Below are positions 3,934 through 30,278 of a DNA stretch of 45,269 bases, piece by piece. Position 1 is the stretch's first letter; each line of letters starts with the position of its first letter. The translations under genes and the position numbers were made by a program. The notes below the pieces were generated by a model. The model was not told the DNA's origin. It saw only the letters and a list, made by a program, of their open reading frames with translations, and did not search any database. The stretch spans positions 1 to 45,269 of the forward strand of contig JAIYEG010000010.1 of NCBI GenBank assembly GCA_027487075.1, in the 5' to 3' direction. This DNA comes from a bacterium (GTDB lineage Bacteria; Patescibacteriota; Minisyncoccia; Phycocordibacterales; CALRBL01).

Positions 3934-3972
3934 TCCTTTATTTTATCAGATAGATTCTATTTTAACGAGGTT

Positions 3973-4416
3973 TCATCTCACCACCCACCACACCACCATC
4001 AGTAGACTTCCCCACCACCCGATATCTGAAACAACAAAACTCACCACGATCTTTCGTTGCCACGATGCAGGCAGAAGTTCGGCTGACTTACCTTCTTTTT
4101 CACGCTGTAATAAAAAAGGACTCACACGATATGACAAAAATAATCCGTTCAGCATAAGTACCGCCGACACAAGCAGATGATACAAAGGCACACCCGCAAA
4201 CCACTCATTGCGAAATACTAATGCACCACCAATAATCACCAAAATAATTCCCACCCAAATGAGAGGCTTCGTTACTTTGTGTGTACGCGTTGTCGCCTCC
4301 GTCCAATACGAAGATTTCCTTCCGAGAAACCCGTGGATATCAATCACCGTCACCGCACCAAGACCGATGACGTAACCAGCGATGAGTACAAAGAGTCCAA
4401 TGAAATCTAAGATCAT
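3973..4416 (-). CDS. Hypothetical 4-TM membrane protein
   Basis: 147 aa with four hydrophobic segments; TATACT lies 7 nt upstream of the ATG. Confidence 0.7.
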   Translation of the reverse strand: MILDFIGLFVLIAGYVIGLGAVTVIDIHGFLGRKSSYWTEATTRTHKVTKPLIWVGIILVIIGGALVFRNEWFAGVPLYHLLVSAVLMLNGLFLSYRVSPFLLQREKEGKSAELLPASWQRKIVVSFVVSDIGWWGSLLMVVWWVVR

Positions 4417-8846: not shown

Positions 8847-10421
8847 TTAAGTAAAGTTGGTGTCAGAAACCGCAGCTTTAATATAATTTCTTAGATTTTC
8901 ATTTACTACATACACATAAGTTCCATGGATACCTCTCGTCAAAAGAGTTTTGTAGATATTTAAAATATACAATTTTAACTCTTCTGGATCGGTTATCGAT
9001 CTTTTTCCATTAAAGTCTTTGTACTCTTCTTTGTTGATGATAATTTTATGTGTCTTAGGGTCATAATCAATTTCCGTTCCAATAATTACACCTACATAAT
9101 TAAGATCATATCCTTGGACAGTATGGATGCATCCAACTTCGTTGATTGAATTTTTGGAATTTACCCAGTCAATCGTTGTTGAATTCCATTTTAATTTAAC
9201 ATCACCAATTTCAATATCATATTCTCCTCCTTTTTTTGTTTTCCATGTCCATGCATATCCAGAAACAACTCGAGACAATCCATATTCTAAATTTTTCTTT
9301 TTAATTTCACTAACCATTTCTCCTACGTCGCTGAATATTTTAAATTCATATTCTTCAAAATTGCTTTCGGAAGGTTCTAAATCGAATAGGTTTGCAATAA
9401 AATCTATATATTTCTCACCCCCTTTAACTCGTATCTGTTTTTTGAGTTCAAATGTAACTTCATCAATATTAGAAAAATCTTCTGGTCGAATATCAGACGG
9501 TCTAACACTTTGGTTCTTATCGTAGAAAAAAATTTGATACCTAGACGACTTAATGATCCAGTCAAGCTGTGTTGCCTCCTTATCTAACTCAAGTTTTTTG
9601 TTTGCTTGATCATACGAAGCAAAGTTTGTAATATTCACACGCCTAGATAATCGATGTGCTTCATCTACCACTAGTAAATCATATTGACCATTCACTACTT
9701 CCGCTGGTGAAATAACCATTCTCGCTCTCAAACCTTTAATTTTTGAAAATACCTTTTTAAGCGATCCTCTAATAGGAGTCATAGGCACAACAAAACCAAT
9801 TTTGAGATGTTTAAAGTTATCATCCTCAAGTAAGTTTTTAATCATGTACGAAGCTAGTATCGTTTTTCCTGTTCCTGGACCTCCATTTACAACAATGCTT
9901 GCCTCGTTTTTGGTGGTAAAAATTTTTTTAATTTGCTCAAAAATTTCCAACTGATCCTCGGTGAGGTTTTTGTAGGGAGATAATTTAAAAATCTGGCTGT
10001 TTCTAATTTGAATAAGTTCTTTGTTAACCAAAGACATCGATCGAAGCTTTTCCCATAACATCTTAAACTTTGCTTGATACTTTTCCTTTTCAAAATAATT
10101 ATGACCACTTAGTCCTTTGTTACCGTTTTGTACGATAAATTTTTCATCCGCAACTATATGCTGGATAAGCATAGACTCAATATCAAGTGAACCTGATTTA
10201 TTAAACTCAGCATCTGATACCACCAACATATTTTTTAGTTTGCGTCTTTCTGGATTATCTAGATGTTGTTTTGTTCTGCTATGTAAGTTGATTGATTCTC
10301 CGACATAAATTTCTTCACTATTATGAAGTAAGTACACAACAGGCCAATTATTGCCAAAATGAAAAGCTTTGATACTAGGTAGATTGCTTTTATTAAATTG
10401 AAAAGCCTTGATTTCAGACAT
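8847..10421 (-). CDS. GIY-YIG nuclease fused to DUF2075 (Schlafen group-3-like SF1) helicase
   Basis: VVYLLH...IYVGES (GIY-YIG); Walker A GGPGTGKT; VVDEAHRL; GCIHTVQGYDLNYVGVIIG; LLTRG. AT-rich DNA. Confidence 0.9.
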   Translation of the reverse strand: MSEIKAFQFNKSNLPSIKAFHFGNNWPVVYLLHNSEEIYVGESINLHSRTKQHLDNPERRKLKNMLVVSDAEFNKSGSLDIESMLIQHIVADEKFIVQNGNKGLSGHNYFEKEKYQAKFKMLWEKLRSMSLVNKELIQIRNSQIFKLSPYKNLTEDQLEIFEQIKKIFTTKNEASIVVNGGPGTGKTILASYMIKNLLEDDNFKHLKIGFVVPMTPIRGSLKKVFSKIKGLRARMVISPAEVVNGQYDLLVVDEAHRLSRRVNITNFASYDQANKKLELDKEATQLDWIIKSSRYQIFFYDKNQSVRPSDIRPEDFSNIDEVTFELKKQIRVKGGEKYIDFIANLFDLEPSESNFEEYEFKIFSDVGEMVSEIKKKNLEYGLSRVVSGYAWTWKTKKGGEYDIEIGDVKLKWNSTTIDWVNSKNSINEVGCIHTVQGYDLNYVGVIIGTEIDYDPKTHKIIINKEEYKDFNGKRSITDPEELKLYILNIYKTLLTRGIHGTYVYVVNENLRNYIKAAVSDTNFT

Positions 10422-10428
10422 ATAGATA

Positions 10429-10809
10429 TTATAACTCAGTATATTTAGTGTATTTCCCTTTTGCCTTATCCTTTGGATATTTTACATTATTGACTTTCAT
10501 CTTTTGTTCAAGTGCATTCTGAATATCAATATCAAGATCATGAGATATGAGAAGAATCCAATAAAATACATCGGCAAGCTCTTCTGAAATTTCTTTTTTA
10601 TTTTTCTTCAAATGAACCTTAATTGCCTCATCATTTTTCCACTGAAAATGCTCCATGAATTCAGTTGCTTCAAGCACAAGAGAAAGTGCCATATCTTTAG
10701 GATTGTGAAATTGTTTCCAATCCCTCTGATCTCTGAATTTGACAATATCTTTAGTTAATTTCTTTATTGGGTTCATTATACGAGATTTTGCCATTTTTCT
10801 ATTATCCAA
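10429..10809 (-). CDS. MazG-like nucleotide pyrophosphohydrolase (start probably MNPIKK)
   Basis: RDWKQFHNPKDMALSLVLEATEFMEHFQW...EELADV...KYP. Confidence 0.9.
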   Translation of the reverse strand: MDNRKMAKSRIMNPIKKLTKDIVKFRDQRDWKQFHNPKDMALSLVLEATEFMEHFQWKNDEAIKVHLKKNKKEISEELADVFYWILLISHDLDIDIQNALEQKMKVNNVKYPKDKAKGKYTKYTEL

Positions 10810-17038: not shown

Positions 17039-17482
17039 TTATCTCTCTGCCACCTCCTTCAGTTTTGCCAATGCTTTCGGCCACATCTCAGCGAACATAT
17101 CTTTCCATTCTGAGGCGACCATCAATTCGACAAGAACCTCTGTGCCACCATCGACATCCTTGAACATATAGTTTTCATACCCTTCCTGTCCTTCTACGGT
17201 CGGCCATGGGCGCTTCTCGCCATTCTTGATTTCTCCAATATGCCTGATTGAGACGAATTCTTGAGGACGATGTGCAGTGATCTTGGCATACATGCCGGAT
17301 ACGCTCGCGTCATCGCTTGGTCCAGTGAATATGATGTCGCTTCCTTCGTCCCAGCTTCCTTCGAAAGTCGAGCCTTTCTGGAAGATCTCGGCCCACTGTT
17401 CATACGTGTCTTTCTCGAGCATCGTCTTCCATACTTTTTCCCGCGGTGCATTGATAATCGTGGTGAAGGTAAGTTTTTCCAT
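17039..17482 (-). CDS. SRPBCC/AHSA1 (START-like) domain protein
   Basis: INAPREKVWKTML..Y..W, GSW..GS..F and WPKALAKLKE. Confidence 0.88.
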   Translation of the reverse strand: MEKLTFTTIINAPREKVWKTMLEKDTYEQWAEIFQKGSTFEGSWDEGSDIIFTGPSDDASVSGMYAKITAHRPQEFVSIRHIGEIKNGEKRPWPTVEGQEGYENYMFKDVDGGTEVLVELMVASEWKDMFAEMWPKALAKLKEVAER

Positions 17483-17935: not shown

Positions 17936-19378
17936 TTACCCAATTATTTTTACTACTCCTTTATCTGCATCAACTTCAACCAAATCTCCGTCTTTGAGAA
18001 CTTTCGTAGCGACCTTGCTTCCTACAATGGCAACTTTCTTTAACTCTCTTGCTACGATTGCCGTGTGAGTCAAAAGACCTCCTTCATCCGTGATGATTGC
18101 AGAAGCCTTACCGATAAGTGGAATAAAAGTGAGGTTTGTCGTTGTTGCAACGAGTATATCTCCGTCCTTAAAATCATCCGCCTGCTTAGTAACATCAAAG
18201 ATAATCTTTACACTACCTCTCACGTTACCCTTGAAAGCAGATATACCCTTAAATTCTTTGACGCTAGTGTCGATGTTTTCTTTAGGCCAAAGTTCCACAA
18301 CTTTATGTTCATCAAATTCATACCAAACCTTATTCTCTCTATAATTAGAGATTATGGCAGAACAAGCTTTTCTTTTTGAAAGTAAGATCTTATCAATCAC
18401 CATCTTGTCGCCATCAAGAACTGAGGCAACTTCTTCTCGTGTAGCACATATAAGTTCTGATATTGATACATCAGCACGCTTTGCAATTTCTAAATACAAG
18501 TGCCTTGCATAGAAGTAACTTTCTTGTCGAAGGTCGTTACGGTATTCTCTATAAAAAGAAACTTTTTTACATGCATCAATCAGTCTCAATATATCAGGAT
18601 AACCAGAAAGCTTTTCCTTTACTTCTTTATAAAGAGCTTCAATATTCTTCTCGTCAATCTCAGACTGATGTAATACTTCTGCAGGATTTCCCCTAATCAG
18701 TTGATCTACTTCTTTTTTGAAATAACTAACAGTAAGAGGCTCTTCATCCATGTTCAAAATAGAAAAATATGAATACGTATCAGCAGCAGCTTTCAGATCT
18801 TCATCCACAGGTAGTCCCTCTTTAGATTTTTTTGCAATTTTCAAAAGCTCGTGCTTCAACGTGTACGCTGCGGTTTTTGCTGTTGGAGCGATCATTGCGG
18901 GTAACAATCGACTGTGATCTTCTTCATTGAGGTTAACTTCTTTCAATCTCTTTTTGAGCTCTGTTGTTAATCCGTCATCAAGAAGGAAAACCATCCATAC
19001 ATAGTTCATCCATTCATCTTCTTTTTTAGTAAATTCTGCCCAAAGATTATGTAATTCTTTTAAAGAAAGATCTGCTAAGTTAGTACTAGCAATCGTCTTT
19101 GAAAATAACAGAAAAGATTCAAATATAGGTACCGCACTCTTTTCAAAATATTCTTCAAAGCCCACTTTATATATTTCAGCGATGACGTGCTTATAACAAG
19201 CTTCAAGCATTTCTTGATCTACATACCCAGACCCAAATCCATCTTTGTATCCAATAAACTGATTAGGAAATTTAACTCCAAATAGCTCCTCAAACTGAAG
19301 TGGTCCAAAAGACCAGTTTTCGCCAAGACGGAGGGAGTGCTTTTTTGACCATACTTTCTTTAAGGTGTGGGTGTTCAT
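17936..19378 (-). CDS. PEP-utilising enzyme mobile (phospho-His swivel) domain protein with a large helical N-terminal domain
   Basis: C-terminal GDILV...AIITDEGGLLTHTAIVARE...GDLVEVDADKG; no ATP-grasp domain. Confidence 0.85.
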   Translation of the reverse strand: MNTHTLKKVWSKKHSLRLGENWSFGPLQFEELFGVKFPNQFIGYKDGFGSGYVDQEMLEACYKHVIAEIYKVGFEEYFEKSAVPIFESFLLFSKTIASTNLADLSLKELHNLWAEFTKKEDEWMNYVWMVFLLDDGLTTELKKRLKEVNLNEEDHSRLLPAMIAPTAKTAAYTLKHELLKIAKKSKEGLPVDEDLKAAADTYSYFSILNMDEEPLTVSYFKKEVDQLIRGNPAEVLHQSEIDEKNIEALYKEVKEKLSGYPDILRLIDACKKVSFYREYRNDLRQESYFYARHLYLEIAKRADVSISELICATREEVASVLDGDKMVIDKILLSKRKACSAIISNYRENKVWYEFDEHKVVELWPKENIDTSVKEFKGISAFKGNVRGSVKIIFDVTKQADDFKDGDILVATTTNLTFIPLIGKASAIITDEGGLLTHTAIVARELKKVAIVGSKVATKVLKDGDLVEVDADKGVVKIIG

Positions 19379-19393
19379 AAGAGTGTTTCTATA

Positions 19394-20269
19394 CTACTTA
19401 TTAGTACCTGACCAAGCAAGTTTCCTTTCTTCTGATTTTTGTTCTAGTTCTTTGATAATTTCACCAAGATCTTTCTCTTGTTCTGTCTCATTTTCACGAT
19501 ATCTAACAATGATTTTCCCATCCTTATTCTCAAATGTTGCAGACTCCAAAAAGTTTCTGGATCTACCATGTAAGTAGGTTTTTAAGTTCTCAGCAGATAT
19601 ATCTTTCCCCATAAGTGCAAGTACTGAAAAATCCGCAGTATTGTGTCCAACTTGAATATTCACGTACTCATGACCTGGGAAGTGACTTTCGGTTATTTCT
19701 CTCATACGCGCACTCAGTCTCAAATATCTTATAGCTTCTTCTTCAGGTGTACGCACAAAATCTGAAGGACGTATGCTGTCAGTATCAGTTTCAGGAAAAG
19801 CTTCATGAAGTTCGCCCTTAACTGATTCAAGCTCTTCTGGTTTTGCAACCCATGCAAGCATAGTGAAATACTCATTACCAGAGAATTTCTTGCCGTATTC
19901 TTTCCATGCAGGGACATAATCAGTGTCAGCCTTAAAACCGATTATAGACTGAGGTTGAACTTCTGTAACGACAAACTTTTTTGTAAAATTACTTTTAATT
20001 TCTGGTCTTTCTTTAAGTGTATTTATAGGAACAAATTCAACACTTGGATCTTCTGCACATAATTCTTGTAGCTCAGTTTCGATTTCGTTTCTAGTTTCAA
20101 CTGCTCTTCCGACATTTGATGGTGTCAGGTAGATAATTGACCCAAGAGGAGCGTTTTGAATTCTTTCATACAATTCAACAGCCTTCTCTCTTGCCTGTTC
20201 TCCACCTCTTTCTGATAGGGTTCCGTCTACATTCTTATCTCCGTGCCTAATTGTTTCAAAATTACCCAT
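19394..20269 (-). CDS. Histidine phosphatase superfamily protein
   Basis: IRHGD, LSERG..QA, S...RAVET and VGH motifs. Confidence 0.75.
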   Translation of the reverse strand: MGNFETIRHGDKNVDGTLSERGGEQAREKAVELYERIQNAPLGSIIYLTPSNVGRAVETRNEIETELQELCAEDPSVEFVPINTLKERPEIKSNFTKKFVVTEVQPQSIIGFKADTDYVPAWKEYGKKFSGNEYFTMLAWVAKPEELESVKGELHEAFPETDTDSIRPSDFVRTPEEEAIRYLRLSARMREITESHFPGHEYVNIQVGHNTADFSVLALMGKDISAENLKTYLHGRSRNFLESATFENKDGKIIVRYRENETEQEKDLGEIIKELEQKSEERKLAWSGTNK

Positions 20270-20270
20270 T

Positions 20271-21239
20271 CTATTTATTAGTTAAGGTTGTTATTGGCCT
20301 ACTTTGTGTAATATAAAATTTTCCTTTTTCAAAAGCCCATTCAATATCACAAGGAAAACCATAATGATTCTCAATCTTCAAGACAAGCTCAGATAATTCC
20401 AATATTTGATCTGTGGCCAAAACTTGTGATGAAGCTCGTGGCTCAGGAATATCTTTCCATTCTGTATTTCCATTTTCGTCTCTATATAAAGCTTTAACTT
20501 GAGTGTTAGTTGTGATATCAATTATATTTCTCGCATTCTTTTCGACGACATATGAATCAGGTGTTATCTCTCCTGATACAATTGCTTCTCCTAGACCAAA
20601 CCCCGCTTCGATAATAAGTTGATTTCTATCTTCAGATACAGGGTGTACTGAAAAAGCAATGCCTGATATTTCTGAATCAACCATCTTTTGCACCACAACA
20701 GCCACTGAGATGTGTGTTTTATGTAATCCTTTTTCAAACCTGTAGAATATTGCACGAGGAGTGAAAAGTGATGCCCAACAGTGTTTTACTTTTTCTAATA
20801 CATCATTTTTTGTAGTATTCAAATAACTATTGAGTTGTCCTGCCCATGCATGATCAACCCCATCTTCAGCGGTGGCAGAAGATCTGACTGCCACATACTC
20901 GGTATCAAGTTCGATAAAGGATGTTTCAATTTCTTTCTTAATATCTTCTAATATTTCGGCATTAAGAATGAGACCTTGAATTTTTTCAGAAGCCGCCTCA
21001 ATTGTATGAATTTCCTGATGATTTACCGAATCTAAAATAGCATCGATTTCATCAATCAGGTGACTTTCTTTTAGGAAGTAATCGAATGATGTAGAGAGGA
21101 TAACAAAACCAGAAGGAACAGGAATTCCAGCATTTGTCATTTCGCCAAGGGAAGCACCTTTGCCTCCAGCGATATCAGCATTATTTTTATTTAATTGTCT
21201 AAAATTACGAGTTAACTCCATATAATACAATTTTATCAT
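20271..21239 (-). CDS. Stand-alone PEP synthase/PPDK N-terminal ATP-binding domain
   Basis: AGGKGASLGEM, VAVRSSATAED, AGQ..SYLN, VVVQKMV, GLGEAIVSG, DIEWA, QSRPITT; the ORF ends at the domain boundary. Confidence 0.92.
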   Translation of the reverse strand: MIKLYYMELTRNFRQLNKNNADIAGGKGASLGEMTNAGIPVPSGFVILSTSFDYFLKESHLIDEIDAILDSVNHQEIHTIEAASEKIQGLILNAEILEDIKKEIETSFIELDTEYVAVRSSATAEDGVDHAWAGQLNSYLNTTKNDVLEKVKHCWASLFTPRAIFYRFEKGLHKTHISVAVVVQKMVDSEISGIAFSVHPVSEDRNQLIIEAGFGLGEAIVSGEITPDSYVVEKNARNIIDITTNTQVKALYRDENGNTEWKDIPEPRASSQVLATDQILELSELVLKIENHYGFPCDIEWAFEKGKFYITQSRPITTLTNK

Positions 21240-21310
21240 AAAACCACTCTCAATAAGTATCCCAAAGTTTCAAAACAGGAAATTTATACTTAGGCAACTA
21301 TTATAGATTT

Positions 21311-21372
21311 TGACAGGTCTCGGTACCACGAACCTGTGACATGACTGCTGGCCTCATCGGGTTCGGAACTTT
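21311..21372. repeat. Degenerate third copy of the island junction motif
   Basis: TGAC-agg-TCTCGG-tacca-CGAACCTG; GAACCT-11 nt-GCTG...AACTTT has the same spacing as at 31388 and 34939. Confidence 0.4.
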
Positions 21373-21440
21373 CTCCATCAAGCCCAGTAAGGGTTTCCAG
21401 AGATACTTGAGTATATCATTTTGACGTTCCTCGGAATGAG

Positions 21441-21785
21441 CTATTTCTTCAAAAAAGACCTTAAGGCTTTCTTCCAACCTAGCTTATGTATCTCCTGAAG
21501 AATCATCCATACTTCCCCTAAAAAATAAGCCCCCACCATTCCAACGAGAGACAATGTGAATCCTGCGTTAAAAGGATTTTCAAATAAGTTACCTGGGAGA
21601 TGAGCAACTTTTACGAGAAGATTCCAAAAACTAATAAGAACAATTCCCCAGAACGCACTAAAACCAATATATTCAAACTCACTGATAGACTTTTCAGATT
21701 TTGTCTTCTTTCTAAAGATCCAGACGCTCATAAAGCCGGCAAGTAGAACGTAGAAGTAAATATAGAAACTTTCAGTAGGTAACAT
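21441..21785 (-). CDS. Small 3-TM membrane protein (possibly DUF6338-like)
   Basis: Hydrophobic segments (YVLLAGF...EFEYIGFSAFWG); own TGgTATACT box 6 nt before the ATG. Confidence 0.6.
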   Translation of the reverse strand: MLPTESFYIYFYVLLAGFMSVWIFRKKTKSEKSISEFEYIGFSAFWGIVLISFWNLLVKVAHLPGNLFENPFNAGFTLSLVGMVGAYFLGEVWMILQEIHKLGWKKALRSFLKK

Positions 21786-21845
21786 TAGTCAAGTATACCA
21801 TTCGAGAAATAAGGGAAAAGCGACAAATGCGACACTGGTCAGTAT

Positions 21846-22334
21846 TTACTCTTTATCGGGATCCTCCTTACGTTCCGCTAACTTTTTTACTGCTTTTCTG
21901 TAAGCCCATTCTTGTGTTGGAGGTGTCAGTAAGACCAATTGATTATAATATTCAGAAATAGCTTTAACTTCTTTTAATAATTCACTTTCACTATAAAATG
22001 AAGCATACGAACAGTGAAGAGACCTAGCTCGATGTTTAATTACCGTAAAACTCTTTGCGGAGTTCAGGTTTTCATAGTACGACTTATGAGGACTAACGAT
22101 ACTACTTGTCGCCGTTATTACAGCAGACACTACAGTTACCCATCCCCACCAAGCAGGTATTACCTCACCAACAACAAGAAGTCCCGAAAGCGATGCTATC
22201 ACCGCTGGTAAAACTTCAAACCAAAATGCCATAGTTTGACTTCGAGACGCAAGAATATGATGAGCTTCGGCCGTGTGTCGCGCGTTATCTTCTATTGTCT
22301 GACATTCTCTTTTAAGATGATCTATATTATTCAT
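21846..22334 (-). CDS. SLATT-domain 2-TM effector (CBASS-type)
   Basis: Helical N-terminus (HTAEAHHILA), two TM helices and a helical C-terminus; overlaps the cyclase stop. Confidence 0.8.
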   Translation of the reverse strand: MNNIDHLKRECQTIEDNARHTAEAHHILASRSQTMAFWFEVLPAVIASLSGLLVVGEVIPAWWGWVTVVSAVITATSSIVSPHKSYYENLNSAKSFTVIKHRARSLHCSYASFYSESELLKEVKAISEYYNQLVLLTPPTQEWAYRKAVKKLAERKEDPDKE

Positions 22335-23682
22335 AATTTGCTCCGATTGGTACCAGTATTCTTCCTACTGCGACACACACACTATCCTTAACAATATAAC
22401 ATTCGACGTAATGCTCCCCATGATACAACGTACTCTCAGTCTTTGCATGCCTACCGTAATCAGGGGTAATTTCACCTCTTAGACCACCTGCCCTTTGAGC
22501 GTCTTCACCAAAATTTCTCACTTTCCAAAAAACGGAGTAAGGAGTAGGCACATTTGTTTCTCTTATTTTAAATTCAAGAGACTTACCCTTAAATAAAATG
22601 AACGAGGAAAGAGGATGTGCCAAAAAATCACCTAACCAGCCAGCACGAAATCCATTCGGAGTAACCAGTGCATCTATGGATAAAGTATGCTGCATATCTC
22701 GCTTAATCTGTATTCCACGATCAGTAATGAACTCCTCATCGCTTGAGGGATATGCTTGCGAGAGCTGCAATATCTTGGTTTCAAGAGTATCAACAAAGAT
22801 CTTGTCTTGAGCGATCAAAAAATCACCACCAAAGATCTTCTGCCATTCCAGTGATGCATCACGCATCTGATCACTTGATTCGTATTCGATTGCCTTTTCT
22901 GCCCTGTTGTATGCACTCTCGGTTTTCGAAAACCATTCTTCACCAAGACTCACAAAAGTATTGTAACCTATAGAAAAGACCGAGGAATTTCTTTTTGTCT
23001 TAAGAAACTCAAAGAATCCCAACATGAGTTCAGGGTAGAGTATATTCACCTGATTATTGAACTTCTGCTTAAGGTATTCAACAACTAGTATTTCAAGAAC
23101 GTAAGATTTGATAGGAACATTGCAATTTCTGATCCAAGACTTGAGCATCCTTATCAATGACTTGGTTCTATCTGTTTCAACACTTGAGTCTTTGACGTGC
23201 TTAATCTCTGCTAGAGGATCCCATATATGCCAAGAACCACCATTTTCAGTATCTGGTATTCGGAAAGTCTTTGCTTCGGTCTGCCAAGCCGGTAGAAGTT
23301 CAACCGTGTGTGATCCCTCGGAAAAACTTATAACTATCACCTTACCCCACGCACTGATCTTTTCGGTGGTAACAAACTTCTCTTTCAAAACTTCGCGTAT
23401 ATCTTGGAGCAGCTGAGACTGCTTATTTCCAGACAAGGAATTGTAACGATCGAACTCTTCATCAGGCATTCTAAAAATCACATCAATGTCCTTTGGCGGT
23501 CTGATATGAGTATGCTTACCATAAGAACCGATAAGTAATTTCGTGCTGCCGTCATACGACTGATTGGGATAATACTTCGAGTGCAATTTTTCGCACACGC
23601 TTTTTATCTTCGTCTTAGCGTCCTCTTTCTGAAGATCTGTAAGCTTAATCTTTTCGAGGAATGTCTTGAAGCTGGAGTCCAT
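22327..23682 (-). CDS. SMODS/CD-NTase cyclic oligonucleotide synthase with a C-terminal AGS-C domain
   Basis: GSYGKHTHIRPPKDIDV and VELLPAW (pol-beta NTase catalytic motifs); LIRMLKSW; WQKIFG; C-terminal FWKVRNFG..A....LRGEI...ESTLYHGEHYVECYIVKD (AGS-C). Confidence 0.9.
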   Translation of the reverse strand: MDSSFKTFLEKIKLTDLQKEDAKTKIKSVCEKLHSKYYPNQSYDGSTKLLIGSYGKHTHIRPPKDIDVIFRMPDEEFDRYNSLSGNKQSQLLQDIREVLKEKFVTTEKISAWGKVIVISFSEGSHTVELLPAWQTEAKTFRIPDTENGGSWHIWDPLAEIKHVKDSSVETDRTKSLIRMLKSWIRNCNVPIKSYVLEILVVEYLKQKFNNQVNILYPELMLGFFEFLKTKRNSSVFSIGYNTFVSLGEEWFSKTESAYNRAEKAIEYESSDQMRDASLEWQKIFGGDFLIAQDKIFVDTLETKILQLSQAYPSSDEEFITDRGIQIKRDMQHTLSIDALVTPNGFRAGWLGDFLAHPLSSFILFKGKSLEFKIRETNVPTPYSVFWKVRNFGEDAQRAGGLRGEITPDYGRHAKTESTLYHGEHYVECYIVKDSVCVAVGRILVPIGANYE

Positions 23683-23700
23683 AAAATCGATAGCTTAGAC

Positions 23701-23982
23701 CTATATGTTAGCGTTCATCCACTTAGTAACATCGGCATTAATACCGTAAGTACCCCAGTCATCTCCCGATACATCCATTACGAGTAGTTCGTCGTTACTG
23801 TCGATAAATTTATTCAAATGATCACGTACTGTAGCAGCACTACCTGTAGTTACGACAAGCCAAGTGGATTCAAGAGGCTTCGCCCAAGTACCAAGTTCTT
23901 TTATTTCTTTAATCAATCGGAGATACTCTGATGATGTTTCTCCTTTGTTCAAGTCATATGCGATTAAAAAAGTTTTGTTCAT
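23701..23982 (-). CDS. Small Cas2/VapD-like ferredoxin-fold protein
   Basis: FLIAYDL N-terminal strand with conserved Asp, ESTWLV and D.LLV; 93 aa. Confidence 0.65.
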   Translation of the reverse strand: MNKTFLIAYDLNKGETSSEYLRLIKEIKELGTWAKPLESTWLVVTTGSAATVRDHLNKFIDSNDELLVMDVSGDDWGTYGINADVTKWMNANI

Positions 23983-23988
23983 AAATAA

Positions 23989-24615
23989 TTAAGTTAAGTC
24001 TGGCAATGTTGCAACAATGACACCCTGTATAGAAAAGTTGTCAGACACGATGATCGGCTTATGTTCCTTATTGCTTGATCGTGGCTTGAGAACGACGAAG
24101 CCGTTCTCCTTAGTAAACTCTTTTACAGTAGCGGCATCATCAATTAAGGCGACAACTTTTTCGCCATTGCTTGCGTGATTCTGCTGTCGAACCAAAAGGA
24201 TGTCTCCGTCTTGGATTCCCGCTTGGTTCATAGAATCACCACTAGCCCTAAGCAAAAAATATCCGTTACCTGAGGAAACGATCGAACGGGAAACAGGAAT
24301 ATACGCCTCGACATTTTCTTCGGCCAGAATCGGCGAACCGCAAGAAACAAGACCCACGAGTGGCACCTCTACTGTGCGGGCATGATCTTCCTGCTCTTCT
24401 AGATCTTTCCTTACCTGAAGATCACCTTGGCTGTTACGCTGAATCCAACCCCTATTAATAAGGCTGTTGAGTAAAAGCAAAGCAGATCTTGGTGATTTAT
24501 ATCCGAGCTCGTCACGCAAATCTCTTACAGAGGGAGAAAATCCCTCGTGAACAATTGCGTTGCGAATGAAGCGAAATGCCTCTAACTCCTTCTCTTTTAG
24601 CTCTTTTTGACTCAT
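23989..24615 (-). CDS. lexA: LexA-family repressor (wHTH + S24 autoprotease)
   Basis: GFSPSVRDL...GYKSPRS, VPLVGLVSCGSP (Cys-Gly cleavage site), GDSM (Ser), TVK (Lys) and IQGVIV. Confidence 0.88.
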   Translation of the reverse strand: MSQKELKEKELEAFRFIRNAIVHEGFSPSVRDLRDELGYKSPRSALLLLNSLINRGWIQRNSQGDLQVRKDLEEQEDHARTVEVPLVGLVSCGSPILAEENVEAYIPVSRSIVSSGNGYFLLRASGDSMNQAGIQDGDILLVRQQNHASNGEKVVALIDDAATVKEFTKENGFVVLKPRSSNKEHKPIIVSDNFSIQGVIVATLPDLT

Positions 24616-24624
24616 TGTATGCTA

Positions 24625-24655
24625 AGTGTATCATACTGTTTACTTTTTTGCAAAC
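24625..24655 (-). promoter_or_regulatory. lexA promoter with an overlapping imperfect palindrome (candidate operator)
   Basis: Minus strand TTGCAA-17-TACACT with extended TG; GTTTAC-N6-GCAAAC (24638-24655) covers the -35 box. Confidence 0.55.
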
Positions 24656-24660
24656 TACTT

Positions 24661-25716
24661 TTATCGTCCAAACATTTCCTTGTAATCTGCATTGGTATGT
24701 TTCTTAAGAAAATCCTTCAAACTGACGAGTTCTTTTTCGGTTAGAGACTCATTTACGTCATCGTCTTTGTTCCAAGGAACCACACCAAGCTCTTTCTTAC
24801 TCTTACTCGGGTCTTTCTTCCATTCCTCTAACACCCTTTTCACCTTTGCGCACTCACCTGAAAGGTAGTCGTCATATTGCTTTCTCAGACTATTTGCTTC
24901 TACTTGCACACGAAGATAATTGGTAGGTATCTCGTTTTTCTCAAGCAAATTTTCGTATGCATATCTCTCTTGGTCTTTTGTGGCAAAAGGTAAACGGCGA
25001 ATGTGATTGGTGTCATACCCCAGAGGATCGAGAAACATGTACTGATGGTATTCAAGTTCGCTCTCGTCAGTAAAGTTATCCATCTTGCGTGCGGTACCCT
25101 GATCTATATGTCGCTCCATCGACATGAGCATAAGTTCTTCAAATGTCTTCCCTTTGGAGTGCTCCCATATCTCCGCCATGAGCTGCACTCGCATCCAAAT
25201 GAAGTCCTTATACTTTTCCCCTGGACCCCATAGCAAATCCCATGCTTGCTTCCGAAGGTTTTCATCGTCGCCGGTGATCGCCTTCTGGATCATTTTGTAA
25301 ATGTCGTTGTATGACATCGCATGGAACTTCTTTATCTGCATCCTTTCTTCTTCGGTAGATTCTCTTATACGCTGAGTCAGAGAAGCGGCGCTTTCAAAGA
25401 TCTTCCTGTTCTTCTCCATTTTTTCCTCGGTCTCTGCTTTGCGAGAAAAGACTGAGTTCACCGATTCAGCTACATAGAGAGCGGTGTCAGGTAAAACATC
25501 TTTTATTCCCCGAGCTTCATATTCATAAGCGCAGATTACAATATCGGGTTTTTCAATGATTCCTCTTTCTTTGCATTCAGCGAGAGTGCAAGAAATCACC
25601 TCACCTAGATCGTAGGTTTTAAGCAGATCATCATAATATTCTTTCCTCTTCAACTGTGATGGCGTTTCTTTCGTGATGCTAGGCATGAAATCCACCAAAA
25701 AAGTTTTTGGGTTCAT
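24661..25716 (-). CDS. Hypothetical charged helical protein
   Basis: 351-aa ORF, 7 nt from the upstream gene; no family recognised. Confidence 0.7.
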   Translation of the reverse strand: MNPKTFLVDFMPSITKETPSQLKRKEYYDDLLKTYDLGEVISCTLAECKERGIIEKPDIVICAYEYEARGIKDVLPDTALYVAESVNSVFSRKAETEEKMEKNRKIFESAASLTQRIRESTEEERMQIKKFHAMSYNDIYKMIQKAITGDDENLRKQAWDLLWGPGEKYKDFIWMRVQLMAEIWEHSKGKTFEELMLMSMERHIDQGTARKMDNFTDESELEYHQYMFLDPLGYDTNHIRRLPFATKDQERYAYENLLEKNEIPTNYLRVQVEANSLRKQYDDYLSGECAKVKRVLEEWKKDPSKSKKELGVVPWNKDDDVNESLTEKELVSLKDFLKKHTNADYKEMFGR

Positions 25717-25723
25717 GGCCTAC

Positions 25724-26209
25724 CTACCGATCACTCTGCTGAACCCCCGTCACCACACCGCCATCAAAGTAGACATAATCATCTCCATAGATCCACTGTT
25801 CGTGGGCAACATTTGCGGTGGTGGTCTTATTTACCCTTTCTGGGTTTCCAATCGACAGCTTCACCTGCTCTTTTGTCATTCCAAGAGCAATTTCCTTATT
25901 TACAACACGATCACACATCGTCTTACTCCAATCCACATGGCTGGCACACAACTTGCCTGCTGGTGAAGCTTTCCATGCAATAGCATCTGCTTCCGCTTGT
26001 TCAGCTTGTGCCTTTTCCGATGCCGCTTGTTTTTCCGCTACTCGCTTTTCAGCATCTATTAAGGCTTGTGACTTAGGAGCTTCAACTGCTTTTTCATCCG
26101 GAACCAAGATATTCAAAATACCACCCAAAAGAAAAAATCCAACTACACCGACCAACACCACTTTACCGAGAGTCCATTTGCGGACTACTTTTTGATTTGA
26201 ATTATTCAT
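25724..26209 (-). CDS. Single-TM exported protein with a BamE/SmpA-like C-terminal domain
   Basis: N-terminal TM segment, Ala/Glu linker, and IALGMTKEQV..SIGNP...EQWIY...YVYFDGGVV. Confidence 0.65.
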   Translation of the reverse strand: MNNSNQKVVRKWTLGKVVLVGVVGFFLLGGILNILVPDEKAVEAPKSQALIDAEKRVAEKQAASEKAQAEQAEADAIAWKASPAGKLCASHVDWSKTMCDRVVNKEIALGMTKEQVKLSIGNPERVNKTTTANVAHEQWIYGDDYVYFDGGVVTGVQQSDR

Positions 26210-26213
26210 TTTT

Positions 26214-26350
26214 TTGTAGCGAGTTTCTAATAATTGGCAGACAAAAAGCCCTCCGCCAAGGCGATGGTCCGAAGACCACCCATAGCCGTTTCCAGCTATG
26301 ACTCGCTACAAGCACACCTGACGAAGGGTTCTTTATCTTGTAGCGAGTTT
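26214..26350 (-). ncRNA. Structured leader/antisense RNA resembling phage C4/CI immunity RNAs
   Basis: 13-nt direct repeats (26214-26226, 26338-26350) with their complement (26301-26312) inside a multibranch structure that has GAAA and UUCG tetraloop hairpins. Confidence 0.6.
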
Positions 26351-26669
26351 TATTGACCATATCCTTCAAGACAAGCTTGAGGGGGTTAGGTCCACATATT
26401 CAGTTGTACGGTACATAATAGCAAAAAACGCTATCATTTGGCACCCTATCGCATTTCAGGGGTTCCGCGAAGCCTTGTTGCCAACAGGGCTTGCATGAAG
26501 CACCCCAGAGGGTATAAAATACAACCAACCTAAATTGTCTACCTATAAGGCTCTGTAACTGTTCGGAAAGAAATTGGTCGATTATCTAAATTTCTTTTCC
26601 TTCAAACAGAGCTTTTCTCTTGTCTACCAAAACAGCACCTAAATGGATTAGTCATTAACTAAATCCACA

Positions 26670-27965
26670 ATGAAAAAACTTTCATGGTGCACCGAACAGC
26701 GAGTAGTGAAAGACCTGCTCCCTTTCAAGCACAACCCTAGAAAGATGTCAGAGAAACAGATCTCTGATCTCAAGAAATCTATTAACAAGTTTGATTTGGT
26801 AGAAATTCCTGCGATTGATCGTGACAACAGGATCATTGCTGGTCATCAGCGTCTGGCGGTCATGCAACTCATCGGACGAGGCGAAGAAACAATTGATGTA
26901 CGTGTGCCGAACCGCAATCTTACCGAAACAGAATACAAACAGTATCTAGTAACCAGCAACAAAGTACATGGCGATTGGGATGAGAATATAATCTACGAAT
27001 ATTTCGAGACTGATCTGCTCCTTGAGTCTGGCTTCGACATAGAAGAAGTCACCAACCTTTTTTCTGAACTTCTCGAAACCGAGGATGATGAGTTCGATAT
27101 AGATACAGAGATTAAGAAGATACAGAAGCCGAAGTCGAAACTTGGTGACTTGTACCAACTCGGTCCACATAGACTTCTTTGTGGAGATTCAACTAATCCT
27201 GAGACAGTAAAAAAGGTTGTCGGAAAAAGTCGGATAGATATGATCTATTGCGACCCTATCTACAATATCAATCTCTCCTACGCGAAAGGTATTGGCGGAA
27301 CAAAGAATTACGGAGGTTCTGCAAATGATACAAAGACTGAAATAGAGTACGAGACATTCCTCACCAAGACGATCGAGAATGCTCTAGCGGTATCGAATAA
27401 GGACACGCATGTTTTCTACTACTGCGACGAAACCTATGTTCCCCTTATCGCAAACATATATGCGAAGTTGGGTATCAAGTTCCGACGTATCTGCATATGG
27501 CTCAAGGGTATCGCAAATCCGACCCCACAAATTGCTTTCTCGAAGGTATATGAGCCGTGTGTATACGGGACCAGAGGAAAACCATACCTTTCACCCAACC
27601 ATCACAACTTCGATGAAGTAATGAATAAGGACATCGGCACAGGCAATCAGATGATTGAAAACTTCATGGACATGTTCGACGTGTGGGCCGTACAAAGACT
27701 TGCTGGAAATAAGTATGAACATCCGACACAAAAGCCTGTAACCCTTCACGACAAGCCTATCCGAAGATGTACCAAGGTTGGTGACAATATCCTGTCTCTG
27801 TTTGGCGGTAGCGGTGGCGAGCTTCTTGCGTCCCATCAGCTCAAACGCAATTGCTTCATGGTCGAGATGGATCCCGTTTTTGTCGATCTTATCATCATGC
27901 GCTATGAGCATTTCACTGGTGGCAAAGCGACGCTAATCAGCAACGGACATGAGAAAGAACGATAG
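26670..27965 (+). CDS. ParB-like N-terminal domain + N4/N6 DNA methyltransferase (phage-type)
   Basis: NPRK, IIAGHQR (ParBc); GPHRLLCGDST, DPIYN, HPTQKP, LFGGSG and EMDPVFVDLII.R. Confidence 0.85.
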   Translation: MKKLSWCTEQRVVKDLLPFKHNPRKMSEKQISDLKKSINKFDLVEIPAIDRDNRIIAGHQRLAVMQLIGRGEETIDVRVPNRNLTETEYKQYLVTSNKVHGDWDENIIYEYFETDLLLESGFDIEEVTNLFSELLETEDDEFDIDTEIKKIQKPKSKLGDLYQLGPHRLLCGDSTNPETVKKVVGKSRIDMIYCDPIYNINLSYAKGIGGTKNYGGSANDTKTEIEYETFLTKTIENALAVSNKDTHVFYYCDETYVPLIANIYAKLGIKFRRICIWLKGIANPTPQIAFSKVYEPCVYGTRGKPYLSPNHHNFDEVMNKDIGTGNQMIENFMDMFDVWAVQRLAGNKYEHPTQKPVTLHDKPIRRCTKVGDNILSLFGGSGGELLASHQLKRNCFMVEMDPVFVDLIIMRYEHFTGGKATLISNGHEKER

Positions 27966-28407
27966 AAAAGCCATATTGGATGCTTTGGAAGAAATTCCCT
28001 TCATAGACAGGGCTTGCAGGAAAATAGGAATACATCGGTCAACATTCTATCGGTGGCAAGAATCAGACCCAGAATTTCGAAAGAAAACAAACAAGGCACT
28101 TGCCCTTGGAAGAGAAAGCCTGTGCGAACTTGCTGAATCAATGCTGGTCAAAAAGATCAAGGATGGAGAAACCAATGCTATTAAATTCTGCTTGCAGAAT
28201 AACAGCCCGATCTACACACCGAAAAGAACGGTCTTTGTGTTGCCAGAAAAGAAGGACACCTACAGTCCCGAAAAAGGATGCGACACGTGTGGCCTCAAAC
28301 CTCTCTCAAAAGAGGTGGGTGACAAGCTTCGAAAGAATATCGAGGTATTCTTCGGCAAGGCAGTTCCCGAAAAGGAATACGACCCGACAGACGAGTTGGG
28401 TGTGTAG
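27949..28407 (+). CDS. HTH protein, terminase-small-subunit-like
   Basis: ACRKIGIHRSTFYRWQESDPEF and AESML...G...AIKF.L. Confidence 0.7.
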   Translation: MRKNDRKAILDALEEIPFIDRACRKIGIHRSTFYRWQESDPEFRKKTNKALALGRESLCELAESMLVKKIKDGETNAIKFCLQNNSPIYTPKRTVFVLPEKKDTYSPEKGCDTCGLKPLSKEVGDKLRKNIEVFFGKAVPEKEYDPTDELGV

Positions 28408-28459: not shown

Positions 28460-29791
28460 ATGGAAGCACGAACAAATGCTCAAATAGGCAGTCCCAATAT
28501 CGTACCCGCAGAACGGGTGCGATATTGCCTGTATGCGAGAAAGAGTTCCGAGGATAGCAGCGAGAAGCAAGCTTTATCAGTTGATTCTCAGGTAAAGGAA
28601 ATGCTGGCGATAGCGGAACGAGACAATCTTGAGATTGTGGATATTCGACGTGAGTCACATTCTGCAAAAACCTCTGGGCAAAGACCGGTATTCAATGAAT
28701 TAATTCGAGATCTTAACACTGGAAGATATACAGGTATTTTGACGTGGGCGCCAGACAGACTTTCTCGTAATGCGGGAGACTTGGGAGCCTTGGTCGATCT
28801 AATGGATGAGAAGAAATTGCATCAGATCAAAACATATGGACAATCATTTCAAAACTCACCGAACGAAAAGTTTTTATTGATGATTCTCTGTTCTCAGGCA
28901 AAGCTTGAGAACGACAACAAAAGTATCAATGTGAAGCGAGGGCTTCGTACTCGATGCGAGATGGGACTATGGCCTGCCCCTGCTCCAATGGGATATCTAA
29001 ATGAGATGAGAGCTGATCGCAAAGGTTACGTATACATTGATCCTGAGCGTGGTCACATTATTAAGAAAATGTTCGAAAAAGTTGCATATGAGAAATGGAG
29101 CGGAAAGAAGGTATTCCACTGGCTCAAGTTCGAGTTGAACTTCAAGACACCTAACGGAAACAAAGGACTGACCTTGAGCAATATTTATCTTCTTCTCCAA
29201 AACGACTTCTACTACGGATCATTTGAGTATCCAAGAAAAAGCGGACTTTGGTACAAAGGAATTCACGAACCTCTAATTTCCAAAGAATTATTTGATCAGG
29301 TTCAACAGCAAGTTAAAAGTCAGATCATCAGGGTACAGGACAAGGAGTTTGCTTTCACAAAGATTATGAGCTGCGGTCTATGCGATTCAGGAATTACAGC
29401 TGATGAAAAATTCAAGAAGCAGAAGAACGGGAATATCCATCGATATGTCTATTACGGATGTACCAAGAAAAAGGATCACAACTGCAAATGCGGATATATT
29501 CGGGAGGACGAGCTAATCGAACAGCTTGTGGGATTGATGGAAACGATAGATTTGGATGAGATAGGCATCAAGGAGAAGATCAGGGCTGAGGTGGAGCGTG
29601 TAAAGAAGTTCCAGAGGGTTATCTTGGGCACTAGAGAGAAGATCGAAGTGAGAGATATAGATATACGAAACTATGCGAAATACGTCCTGATGGAAGCTCC
29701 TGATTTGGAGAAAAGAGAGTTGTTGGGATGTTTGAAGAGTAAGATAAGACTAAGTAACAAGAAAATATTTTTGAAAATTAATTTGGATTAA
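28460..29791 (+). CDS. Large serine recombinase (resolvase + recombinase + Zn-ribbon)
   Basis: YARKSSED (catalytic Ser), RPVFN, DRLSRN, PAPMGY, HEPLISKELFD and CGLC...YYGC...C. Confidence 0.93.
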   Translation: MEARTNAQIGSPNIVPAERVRYCLYARKSSEDSSEKQALSVDSQVKEMLAIAERDNLEIVDIRRESHSAKTSGQRPVFNELIRDLNTGRYTGILTWAPDRLSRNAGDLGALVDLMDEKKLHQIKTYGQSFQNSPNEKFLLMILCSQAKLENDNKSINVKRGLRTRCEMGLWPAPAPMGYLNEMRADRKGYVYIDPERGHIIKKMFEKVAYEKWSGKKVFHWLKFELNFKTPNGNKGLTLSNIYLLLQNDFYYGSFEYPRKSGLWYKGIHEPLISKELFDQVQQQVKSQIIRVQDKEFAFTKIMSCGLCDSGITADEKFKKQKNGNIHRYVYYGCTKKKDHNCKCGYIREDELIEQLVGLMETIDLDEIGIKEKIRAEVERVKKFQRVILGTREKIEVRDIDIRNYAKYVLMEAPDLEKRELLGCLKSKIRLSNKKIFLKINLD

Positions 29792-30278
29792 ATCTTGAAT
29801 CCCAAAGCATTGAGTTAGTTCTATCTCCGTTATTTTTAAAAAAAGTAAGTTTTACAAAAGAAAGAAATTCTTTTAAATCAATACTTCTAGAAATGTACCT
29901 AACCCCCGAGTGTATTGATGATACATGGGGCTCGTGCTGCTCATCATTTTGATAATGAAAATTAAAATATAAACAATCATCCGACATTTTATTTGAAGGT
30001 TTATGCTCAAGAAGATAATCATACTCATCTGAAGAAAATATATATGTATAACCTTCAACCTTTTTTTCTTTTAGATTATAGATTTCAAAAAAAGAAAGAT
30101 AGCCAACTTTATCTTTAAGCAACATACCTTCCGCACGTTGGTGACTAATTTCGTGAGGAAAATAAATAATATTCCCAACTTTTTTCATAGAATTAATAGC
30201 TCTTTCAGGATCTTGAAAAATATCCTTATACTCATTTAATGCTATTTTAATTTCTGTTACTCTTTTATCTATAGACAT
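29778..30278 (-). CDS. Putative toxin, TumE/DUF6516-like
   Basis: TGATG coupling to the upstream gene; GYTY...H..PH...IDLKEFLSFV pattern; very AT-rich. Confidence 0.4.
   Translation of the reverse strand: MSIDKRVTEIKIALNEYKDIFQDPERAINSMKKVGNIIYFPHEISHQRAEGMLLKDKVGYLSFFEIYNLKEKKVEGYTYIFSSDEYDYLLEHKPSNKMSDDCLYFNFHYQNDEQHEPHVSSIHSGVRYISRSIDLKEFLSFVKLTFFKNNGDRTNSMLWDSRFNPN

Follow-up and report, generated by a model that had tools for sequence, protein, structure and literature searches.

A cyclic oligonucleotide-based antiphage signaling system (CBASS), type I by gene content, lies behind a gene for a LexA-type repressor in the 45,269-nucleotide (nt) stretch of DNA analyzed here (referred to, at its full length, as the window), which belongs to a 676-kb genome of 12 contigs that is 92% complete (G000); the organism is uncultivated and present in freshwater samples, and the size of its genome at this completeness suggests Patescibacteria/CPR. 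The reading that we favor, with moderate confidence, is that this CBASS is cargo in a slot behind the element-borne lexA and a solo Cas2-fold gene of a serine-recombinase integrative element and that it would be derepressed upon DNA damage. The CBASS itself is ordinary, and what is new is the undescribed regulatory and genomic setting in which it stands: judged by the titles and abstract openings of the papers listed in our literature searches, neither LexA or S24 repressors nor Cas2-like proteins have been connected with CBASS or SMODS. Because CBASS is lethal to the cell that encodes it, the means of its silencing matter, and the pairing of LexA with CBASS suggests a form of damage-gated immunity.

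Four co-oriented minus-strand open reading frames (ORFs) of 208, 93, 451, and 162 amino acids (aa) are tightly packed, the first three being separated by 6 nt and 18 nt and the last two overlapping by 8 nt, which reproduces the gene string and spacing given in an initial annotation made from the sequence alone. Together with the gap that precedes them, they are as follows, the cyclase being a cGAS/DncV-like nucleotidyltransferase (CD-NTase) and the effector a two-transmembrane (2TM) protein.

24616..24660, minus strand: 45-nt gap before lexA with a candidate LexA operator (shared motifs; function putative)
23989..24615, minus strand: element-borne LexA paralogue, 208 aa, with Cys92-Gly93 and Ser128/Lys165 (Pfam, E. 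coli LexA alignment)
23701..23982, minus strand: solo Cas2-fold protein of the phrog_1090 family, 93 aa (PHROG profile, predicted structure)
22327..23682, minus strand: CD-NTase with SMODS and C-terminal AGS-C sensor domains, 451 aa (Pfam, PADLOC, motif alignment)
21846..22334, minus strand: SLATT-type 2TM CBASS effector, 162 aa (PADLOC 2TM and RTasSLATT matches)

The cyclase matches Pfam SMODS (3.5e-26) and AGS_C (3.5e-34) as well as PADLOC cyclase PDLC00796 (3.1e-112) and is the sole SMODS gene of the genome (SMODS, SLATT, and AGS-C being the domain names of the original description). Its GS and DID align with those of the solved CD-NTase chain 6p8u, and its Glu falls opposite the third Asp of that chain, so that the motif GS...DID...E, previously read from the translation, is retained with its acidic residue in place. 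The effector matches PADLOC 2TM model PDLC00712 (1.7e-15) and RTasSLATT (2.3e-21), with no Pfam match at 0.01. In the CBASS classification that Millman et al. reportedly proposed in 2020, type I consists of a CD-NTase plus a transmembrane effector. The pair is type I in this sense by its predicted gene content, as had been proposed, in that it shares with other such systems a SMODS cyclase with the GS/DxD/acidic motif, an overlapping gene for a 2TM SLATT effector, and the lack of any PADLOC match to Cap2/Cap3 or HORMA/TRIP13 among the six genes at 21441-25716 (genes farther out were scanned with Pfam only). It differs in the AGS-C sensor domain of its cyclase and in that it does not form a free-standing operon but belongs to a string of genes headed by lexA on a mobile element.

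The protein encoded by the first gene of the string is a full LexA, with matches to PF00717 (Peptidase_S24; 2.6e-30) and PF01726 (LexA_DNA_bind; 1e-9) and an end-to-end alignment with E. coli LexA structures (E, 1.6e-29). Ser128 and Lys165 align with the catalytic dyad of E. coli LexA, as expected from the initial annotation, and both residues are retained in all 20 aligned LexA-type proteins. Cys92-Gly93 falls opposite the Ala-Gly of E. coli, and the identical Cys-Gly occurs in relatives adjoining recA; Cys-Gly is also the cleavage site of UmuD. We considered Cys-Gly as a mark of defense-linked LexAs and rejected it, because LexAs of lexA-recA operons carry it too.

CapH/CapP is a CBASS regulator that combines an XRE-type helix-turn-helix (HTH) protein with an M78 metallopeptidase. 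To our knowledge, CapW and CapH/CapP are the only CBASS regulators described so far. CapW, as summarized in its published description, is a WYL-type CBASS regulator (PMC9122588). The arrangement in the window shares with both of these a transcription factor that adjoins CBASS, upstream or divergent, and that could couple expression to a stress signal. The putative regulator here is different, being a full LexA with a winged-helix domain and an S24 peptidase of the self-cleaving type; it has LexA_DNA_bind and S24 domains only, with no WYL domain and no XRE-HTH with M78 metallopeptidase.

The evidence that carries the association comes from 401 genomes of the window's phylum, 21 of which, the window's included, contain SMODS genes. 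Using a hidden Markov model (HMM) of five LexA-type proteins, we examined the 21 SMODS loci (±1.5 kb) of the 20 other genomes; the S24-LexA HMM matches at 7 of the 21, and when the identical test was applied to 401 genomes each of two other phyla (the phylum of the Pseudomonas genome with locus L011 and that of the Veillonella genome with L017), no match was obtained at the SMODS loci of either (0 of 30 and 0 of 30). A genome of the window's phylum has on average about one LexA-type gene (371 genomes, the unpublished G154 among them, gave 378 matches, with at least one match in 293), so that by a rough estimate chance alone would place only about 0.07 LexA in the 69 kb that the 21 loci span. 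The adjacency of LexA and CBASS in this phylum is recurrent and not due to chance.

With more flank, LexA is present at 8 of 20 loci (at least 2 of the 20, L082 and L083, are probably false SMODS matches), and 7 of these LexAs directly adjoin PADLOC-confirmed pairs of cyclase and effector. The seven involve cyclase models 00793, 00796, 00785, and 00803 with patatin, 2TM, or one-transmembrane (1TM) effectors, and their layouts fall into two kinds. In the co-oriented kind, the order is LexA, patatin, and AGS-C cyclase in L065, where a methylase and LOOT RNA lie upstream as in the window; LexA, cyclase, and SLATT_4 in L067; and LexA, 1TM effector, and cyclase in L070 and L071. In L078, L080, and L081, LexA is divergent from a pair of transmembrane effector and cyclase. 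Locus L073 holds LexA, a restriction-modification (RM) system, and a SMODS fragment. Among the other loci that combine SMODS with AGS_C, LexA is present in 5 of 6, L066 having instead the element backbone with an RM system. Of nine genomes examined in this respect, six encode a full-length S24 protein outside the CBASS locus as well; the CBASS-adjacent LexA is the only copy found in G115 and G357, and in G063 both full-length copies are at the CBASS locus.

The window LexA has company in its own genome, which contains recA and, besides the window gene, a 191-aa LexA on C7 (28% identical to the window LexA), a 102-aa UmuD-like gene on C12 that directly precedes a 439-aa ORF, and a weak fourth S24 match at C5:76757. 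The promoters of the C7 lexA operon and of the C12 umuD-like operon share GGTGAAC-N4-GTTCACC between TTGAC and TATACT, and perfect copies of GTGAAC-N4-GTTCAC number three genome-wide (C1:8362, C7:14752, and C12:9953). This sequence, which we take to be Cheo-box-like, appears to be the host SOS box. It could be supposed that the window LexA is the master SOS repressor of the cell and the CBASS an ordinary chromosomal member of the SOS regulon, as relatives 48% identical to it occupy lexA-recA operons in two other genomes (L201 and L202). This is very improbable, however, given the second LexA on C7, the perfect boxes at C7, C12, and C1 with none in the element, and the placement of the window LexA between a recombinase/methylase backbone and cargo. 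With only 28% identity to the C7 protein and no host-type box in the element, the window LexA is, as far as such comparisons indicate, an extra copy with another specificity.

The genes preceding the CBASS string, on both sides of a 460-nt divergent gap, are as follows.

28460..29791, plus strand: large serine recombinase, backbone (Resolvase, Recombinase, and Zn_ribbon_recom domains)
27949..28407, plus strand: HTH protein, backbone (PF13022, 4e-7; relatives with weak small-terminase-like matches)
26670..27965, plus strand: divergent N6/N4 DNA methylase, element backbone (PF01555, 5.3e-25)
26263..26392, minus strand: LOOT RNA (RF03000) and terminator-like hairpin (Rfam model score)
25724..26209, minus strand: 161-aa ORF with N-terminal hydrophobic stretch, first gene behind LOOT (sub-threshold Pfam match only)
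24661..25716, minus strand: 351-aa ORF, co-oriented, ending 45 nt before lexA (ORF only, with neither a Pfam nor a PADLOC match)

Relatives of the element were traced through the 93-aa Cas2-like protein: a word-index search gave 12 close relatives, and 9 genome, 8 metagenome, and 5 viral loci were fetched. Locus L018 carries a 90% identical copy of LexA, Cas2-like gene, and cyclase. In L024, the recombinase (66% identical), HTH gene, methylase (52%), a LexA-type gene (33%), and Cas2-like gene (68%) are followed by another cyclase (PDLC00814, lacking AGS-C) and 2TM effector (PDLC00706), and in L019, the window's backbone and a 73% identical Cas2-like gene are followed by a convergent Shedu SduA. 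Locus L009, which also has the methyltransferase (53%), has no cyclase, its LexA (51%), DUF2188, and Cas2-like (72%) genes, in this order, being followed by a 163-aa ORF, Exo_endo_phos, HNH, and AbiH. Across the wider set, methylase homologues 44-61% identical lie beside LexA in L009, L019, L024, L065, L066, L197, L198, and L203; relatives of the HTH protein occur in L009, L019, and L024; and recombinases 56-66% identical occur in L019 and L024. Window-type LexA (47-56% identical) and methylase are also found together in L197 and L198, with uncharacterized cargo, and in L203, where the genes behind LexA are DUF2188, a 130-aa ORF, and a ThsB-type TIR (L203:8265-10130; Thoeris-like). In L200 (7656-10220), a window-type LexA is followed directly by a Multi_ubiq/DUF6791-ThiF/DUF6527 set (a ubiquitin-like system), and in L199, a LexA of the window lineage stands before DUF3892, beside a type ISP enzyme. 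LexAs of the same lineage directly precede recA in L201 and L202. As a separate observation, the DUF2188 gene between LexA and the Cas2-like gene in L009 is a PADLOC candidate (PDC-S16).

The initial annotation had envisaged LexA, the Cas2-like gene, and CBASS as one unit possibly wired to the SOS response. Against this, LexA and the Cas2-like gene occur with unrelated cargo in L009, L019, and L203, an outcome that had been named beforehand as contradicting it, and we regard LexA, the Cas2-like gene, the methylase, the HTH protein, the serine recombinase, and LOOT, on comparison of these loci, as the element backbone.

A mobile-element repressor may chiefly control excision. In phage lambda, the rexAB moron is expressed constitutively with the cI repressor, and the window resembles that arrangement in that defense genes lie downstream of, and are probably cotranscribed with, the S24 repressor of an element whose cargo varies between relatives. 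By analogy, LexA would be a maintenance repressor that silences the divergent methylase-HTH-recombinase operon until SOS, the CBASS would be a constitutive moron, and LexA cleavage would lead to excision, not to the arming of CBASS. This fits the unrelated cargo on a shared backbone, the serine recombinase and terminase-like genes that adjoin, and the swapping of cargo between the closest LexA pairs. Even so, we think it unlikely. In L078, L080, and L081, LexA is divergent from effector and cyclase, as a local regulator would be, with no backbone detected by BLAST; in L201 and L202, LexAs of the window type stand first in chromosomal lexA-recA operons; and an autorepressed lexA promoter would still render the genes downstream of it damage-inducible. 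The likeness to lambda is further limited by the LexA-type DNA-binding domain, in a lineage that includes chromosomal lexA-recA genes, and by the nature of the element, a small serine-recombinase island with terminase-like genes only in some relatives.

A single promoter had been proposed for the string, with its -35 box under GTTTAC-N6-GCAAAC. That sequence is present at 24638-24655 as a 5-of-6 inverted repeat, and at least one inverted repeat of this quality occurs in 62% of the window's 1005 45-nt tiles; the lexA gap holds six such repeat pairs versus 1.9 in shuffles, and six were reached in 5.6% of 5000 shuffles. Matches to sigma-70-like promoters at 21000-27000 number 12 versus 12.9 ± 3.5 in shuffles. 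With a commonplace repeat, promoter matches at the level of shuffles, lexA as third gene, and no match to the host SOS box, we find no support for this single promoter or for the repeat as an operator.

A candidate LexA operator is formed by the TGTAT repeats and the 10-mer AGTGTATCAT at 24616-24634. The plus strand immediately before the lexA start codon reads TGTATGCTAAGTGTATCATACTG (24616-24638) and contains TGTAT-N6-TGTAT (24616-24631) and AGTGTATCAT (24625-24634). Related LexA genes in L070 (41% identical) and L197 (49%) likewise have an exact copy of AGTGTATCAT 25-44 nt upstream of them, and the 676-kb genome has only two copies, the second at C1:13292, overlapping the start of a 99-aa ORF. 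In L201 and L202, whose lexA-recA operons contain a window-type LexA, TGTAT-N6-TGTAT also closely follows a TTGAC(A) box upstream of the operon. A comparison of upstream regions yielded no operator common to all LexA lineages. Other motifs were seen before CBASS-linked LexA genes elsewhere: TTATCCAC and GTGGATAA repeats precede two LexA genes of another lineage (only at L065:5650-5740 and L081:8490-8517), and the divergent gap of L078 contains GATAACCT-N10-AGGTTATC.

The favored reading, that of a damage-derepressed CBASS in a slot behind lexA, would work as follows. The CBASS genes would be cotranscribed with lexA, since the gaps of 6 and 18 nt leave no room for a promoter and the cyclase and SLATT genes would ride on the lexA transcript; transcription would come from a LexA-autorepressed promoter in the 45-nt gap, from read-through of the LOOT-led genes, or from both. 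The window LexA would repress this transcript at the TGTAT-rich site. Upon DNA damage or phage replication, RecA filaments would form and trigger self-cleavage of the window LexA at Cys92-Gly93, and the operon would be derepressed. The larger pool of CBASS proteins would then act as in any type I system, infection leading to a nucleotide signal from the cyclase, permeabilization of the membrane by the SLATT protein, and death of the infected cell. The Cas2-fold protein would be the product of a separate passenger or backbone gene.

Several observations weigh against this reading or restrict it. Upstream of lexA, two co-oriented ORFs (351 and 161 aa, with gaps of 45 and 7 nt) lie behind the LOOT RNA, so that the operon may start at LOOT instead; the 10-mer AGTGTATCAT, which like TGTAT was picked out by eye, is common to only 3 loci, and promoter and operator are both putative; and the host-type box GTGAAC-N4-GTTCAC has no match in C5:17000-31000 with up to 2 mismatches. 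From the side of the repressor, the 29 best LexA loci of other genomes contain a cyclase in 0 of 29 cases, and a Cas2-like gene likewise in 0 of 29. The CBASS-adjacent LexAs do not form one clade: on a tree of 20 proteins, the label needs 7 changes, and as few were obtained in 347 of 500 shuffles, and the closest pairs on the tree (window and L009, L024 and L019) differ in cargo. The scattered tree and the lack of cyclases at the best loci thus describe a link of LexA with a defense slot and not a coevolving LexA-CBASS module. Because that slot also takes Shedu, RM, a ubiquitin-like system, and a ThsB-type TIR, the link is to defense cargo in general and not to CBASS, CBASS being the most frequent occupant seen here. 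The proposal of a LexA-wired CBASS therefore survives in part: the adjacency (7 of 21 loci versus 0 of 30 and 0 of 30) speaks for it, and the backbone with unrelated cargo and the failure of LexA lineages to track CBASS speak against it.

The Cas2-like identity of the 93-aa protein, proposed from its translation, stands as a matter of fold. The structure model, built on 130 relatives, has a predicted local distance difference test (pLDDT) score of 95.5 and the beta-alpha-beta-beta-alpha-beta fold of Cas2, and the top Foldseek matches in the PDB are Cas2 chains (template modeling [TM] scores of 0.57-0.68; best E value 6.5e-4, at a TM score of 0.67), with GhoS at rank 8. Searches by sequence place the protein in phrog_1090 (7.2e-21 over residues 3-93), a prophage gene family of 2863 representatives at E ≤ 1e-3 that is matched by all 130 family representatives examined. 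The protein itself has no Pfam match at 0.01 and reaches PADLOC Cas2 only at 0.006; among the 130 relatives, Pfam Cas2 (PF09827) is matched by 32 and NCBIfam cas2 by 6. A PDB profile search with the family returned only Cas2, at an E value of 0.15, and a fold search of BFVD gave no match at E ≤ 0.001. The protein thus shares with the small ferredoxin-fold nucleases Cas2, GhoS, and VapD its fold and a conserved Tyr-Asp ending strand 1; it differs from Cas2 in its phrog_1090 membership, in the failure of the Pfam Cas2 model, and in the absence of Cas1, PF01867 having found none in the 92%-complete genome.

Members of this family also stand alone in phages. By tblastn, the Cas2-like protein is encoded in 43 phage records: Enterococcus phage phiFL1A has the gene within its lysogeny module, in the direction opposite to that of the early genes; in one Staphylococcus phage and one Pasteurella phage, it is likewise a lone copy reading against its neighbors; and in the P2-like phage R18C, it stands between tail-fibre-assembly and sheath genes. 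A scan of viral contigs gave 5 distant loci with a family member, none with LexA or cyclase. In a Fibrobacter metagenome-assembled genome (L016:104-10833), a family member is flanked on one side by a Tc-toxin-like ORF and on the other by a gene for a TIR/STAND NTPase.

These distributions bear on whether the Cas2-fold protein serves CBASS specifically, as an ancillary RNase or regulator whose target could be the signal, the effector mRNA (in the manner of GhoS), or phage RNA. It lies directly upstream of the cyclase in 4 of 22 distinct family loci (window, L018, L024, and L021), with three cyclase models (00796, 00814, and 00800) and genes that overlap or are no more than 18 nt apart; in L021, which has the third cyclase type, the Cas2-like and cyclase genes overlap. 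The 22 loci were fetched with patterns from close relatives and are a biased sample. Residues Tyr9, Asp10 (ending strand 1), Leu11, Tyr20, Ser39, Asp64, and Trp88 are nearly invariant in the 130 representatives, which, with the GhoS match in Foldseek, is compatible with such an activity. Against it, none of the phylum's 21 other SMODS loci has the gene, nor does any of the 60 loci in the two other phyla; a close relative is present in only 3 of the 401 genomes, the other two lacking SMODS; the family is large and occurs alone in temperate phages; and its members adjoin Shedu or other genes in L019, L009, L016, and L017. We therefore judge a dedicated ancillary to be quite improbable. Found at 0 of 21 other SMODS loci and belonging to a common prophage family, the Cas2-like protein is not a general CBASS component. 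It is better regarded as the product of a mobile-element gene that is transcribed with whatever follows it, a specific role in CBASS being unlikely.

Taken more broadly, the loci allow a tentative generalization, which we hold to be possible but somewhat doubtful: lexA, whether chromosomal beside recA or on recombinase elements, would head a portable immune slot, any defense system placed behind or opposite it would become gated by RecA-triggered LexA cleavage, and the Cas2-fold protein and LOOT would add posttranscriptional control of toxic cargo. The occupants on which this view draws are CBASS with at least five cyclase types, the ubiquitin-like system, the Thoeris-like TIR, RM, and Shedu. 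If it were true, LexA would constitute a third, lineage-wide class of damage-sensing defense regulator beside CapW and CapH/CapP, and abortive-infection immunity, with the other systems of the slot, would be tied directly to the classical RecA/LexA damage signal, an effect of consequence where, as in these bacteria, genomes are very small and regulators few. The gap at 24616-24660 offers a short, concrete DNA target for the question of LexA binding.

As a by-product, the comparison suggests how the orphan LOOT RNA might act in cis, in a form open to testing. The LOOT RNA of the window scores 77 bits against RF03000 (gathering score, 46.4; E, 7e-13) over the full length of the model (positions 1-121), lies in the 460-nt divergent gap upstream of the 161-aa ORF, and has a fold z-score of -4.45. 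The 12-nt perfect inverted repeat at 26301-26312/26337-26348 and a third copy of it, considered as three repressor operators, were rejected as such, since they represent hairpin 2 of LOOT. The 5' arm of this hairpin recurs at 26214-26224, immediately ahead of where translation of the 161-aa ORF would begin, and an exact 10- to 16-nt copy of the arm lies 37-53 nt behind LOOT, directly before the next start codon, at 5 of 6 LOOT loci (window 26214-26392, minus strand; L009:326-520; L019:2965-3156; L024:3673-3870; and L065:4893-5084), the arm repeat being absent from the LOOT locus of L023. The copies vary by locus, each being identical to the arm of its own locus (CTCGCTACAA, TCCGCTAAAG, CCTACGCAAA, and CTCACGACAA), and a G-rich hairpin with a T-run follows LOOT at all 6 loci. 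With the arm repeated before a start codon, the 3' arm of the hairpin could pair with either copy, and LOOT could act as a cis-acting translation switch rather than a free small RNA. The ORFs behind LOOT are mutually unrelated (window 25724-26209, L019:3154-3645, L024 at about 3860-4415, L065:5082-5636, and L009:518-880), and in 4 of the 5 a hydrophobic stretch at the N terminus leads into a soluble domain; the position behind LOOT resembles a second variable slot, one that perhaps takes surface proteins.

As to the extent of the element, four DNA runs yielded only short contig fragments from this organism, in which no joints, element borders, or empty site were seen; among the sequencing runs listed as containing the stretch, none is an RNA run. 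Contigs of two runs from one study (X3 and X5) diverge from the window at 17221 and 27152 with identical foreign letters, and in several runs the contigs part from it close to where the recombinase gene ends (29834-30093); such breaks could reflect either mosaic strains or the borders of the element. The three genes that come next after the CBASS on its downstream side, at 17936-21239 (36-38% GC), encode a PPDK_N protein (322 aa), a 291-aa product without matches, and a PEP-utilizers mobile domain protein (480 aa), a trio that resembles a split PEP-utilizing enzyme and may be further cargo. A 33% GC patch at 8847-10809 contains a Schlafen-group-3 helicase (PADLOC Nhi, 2e-15) and a MazG-like gene and is probably another defense islet.

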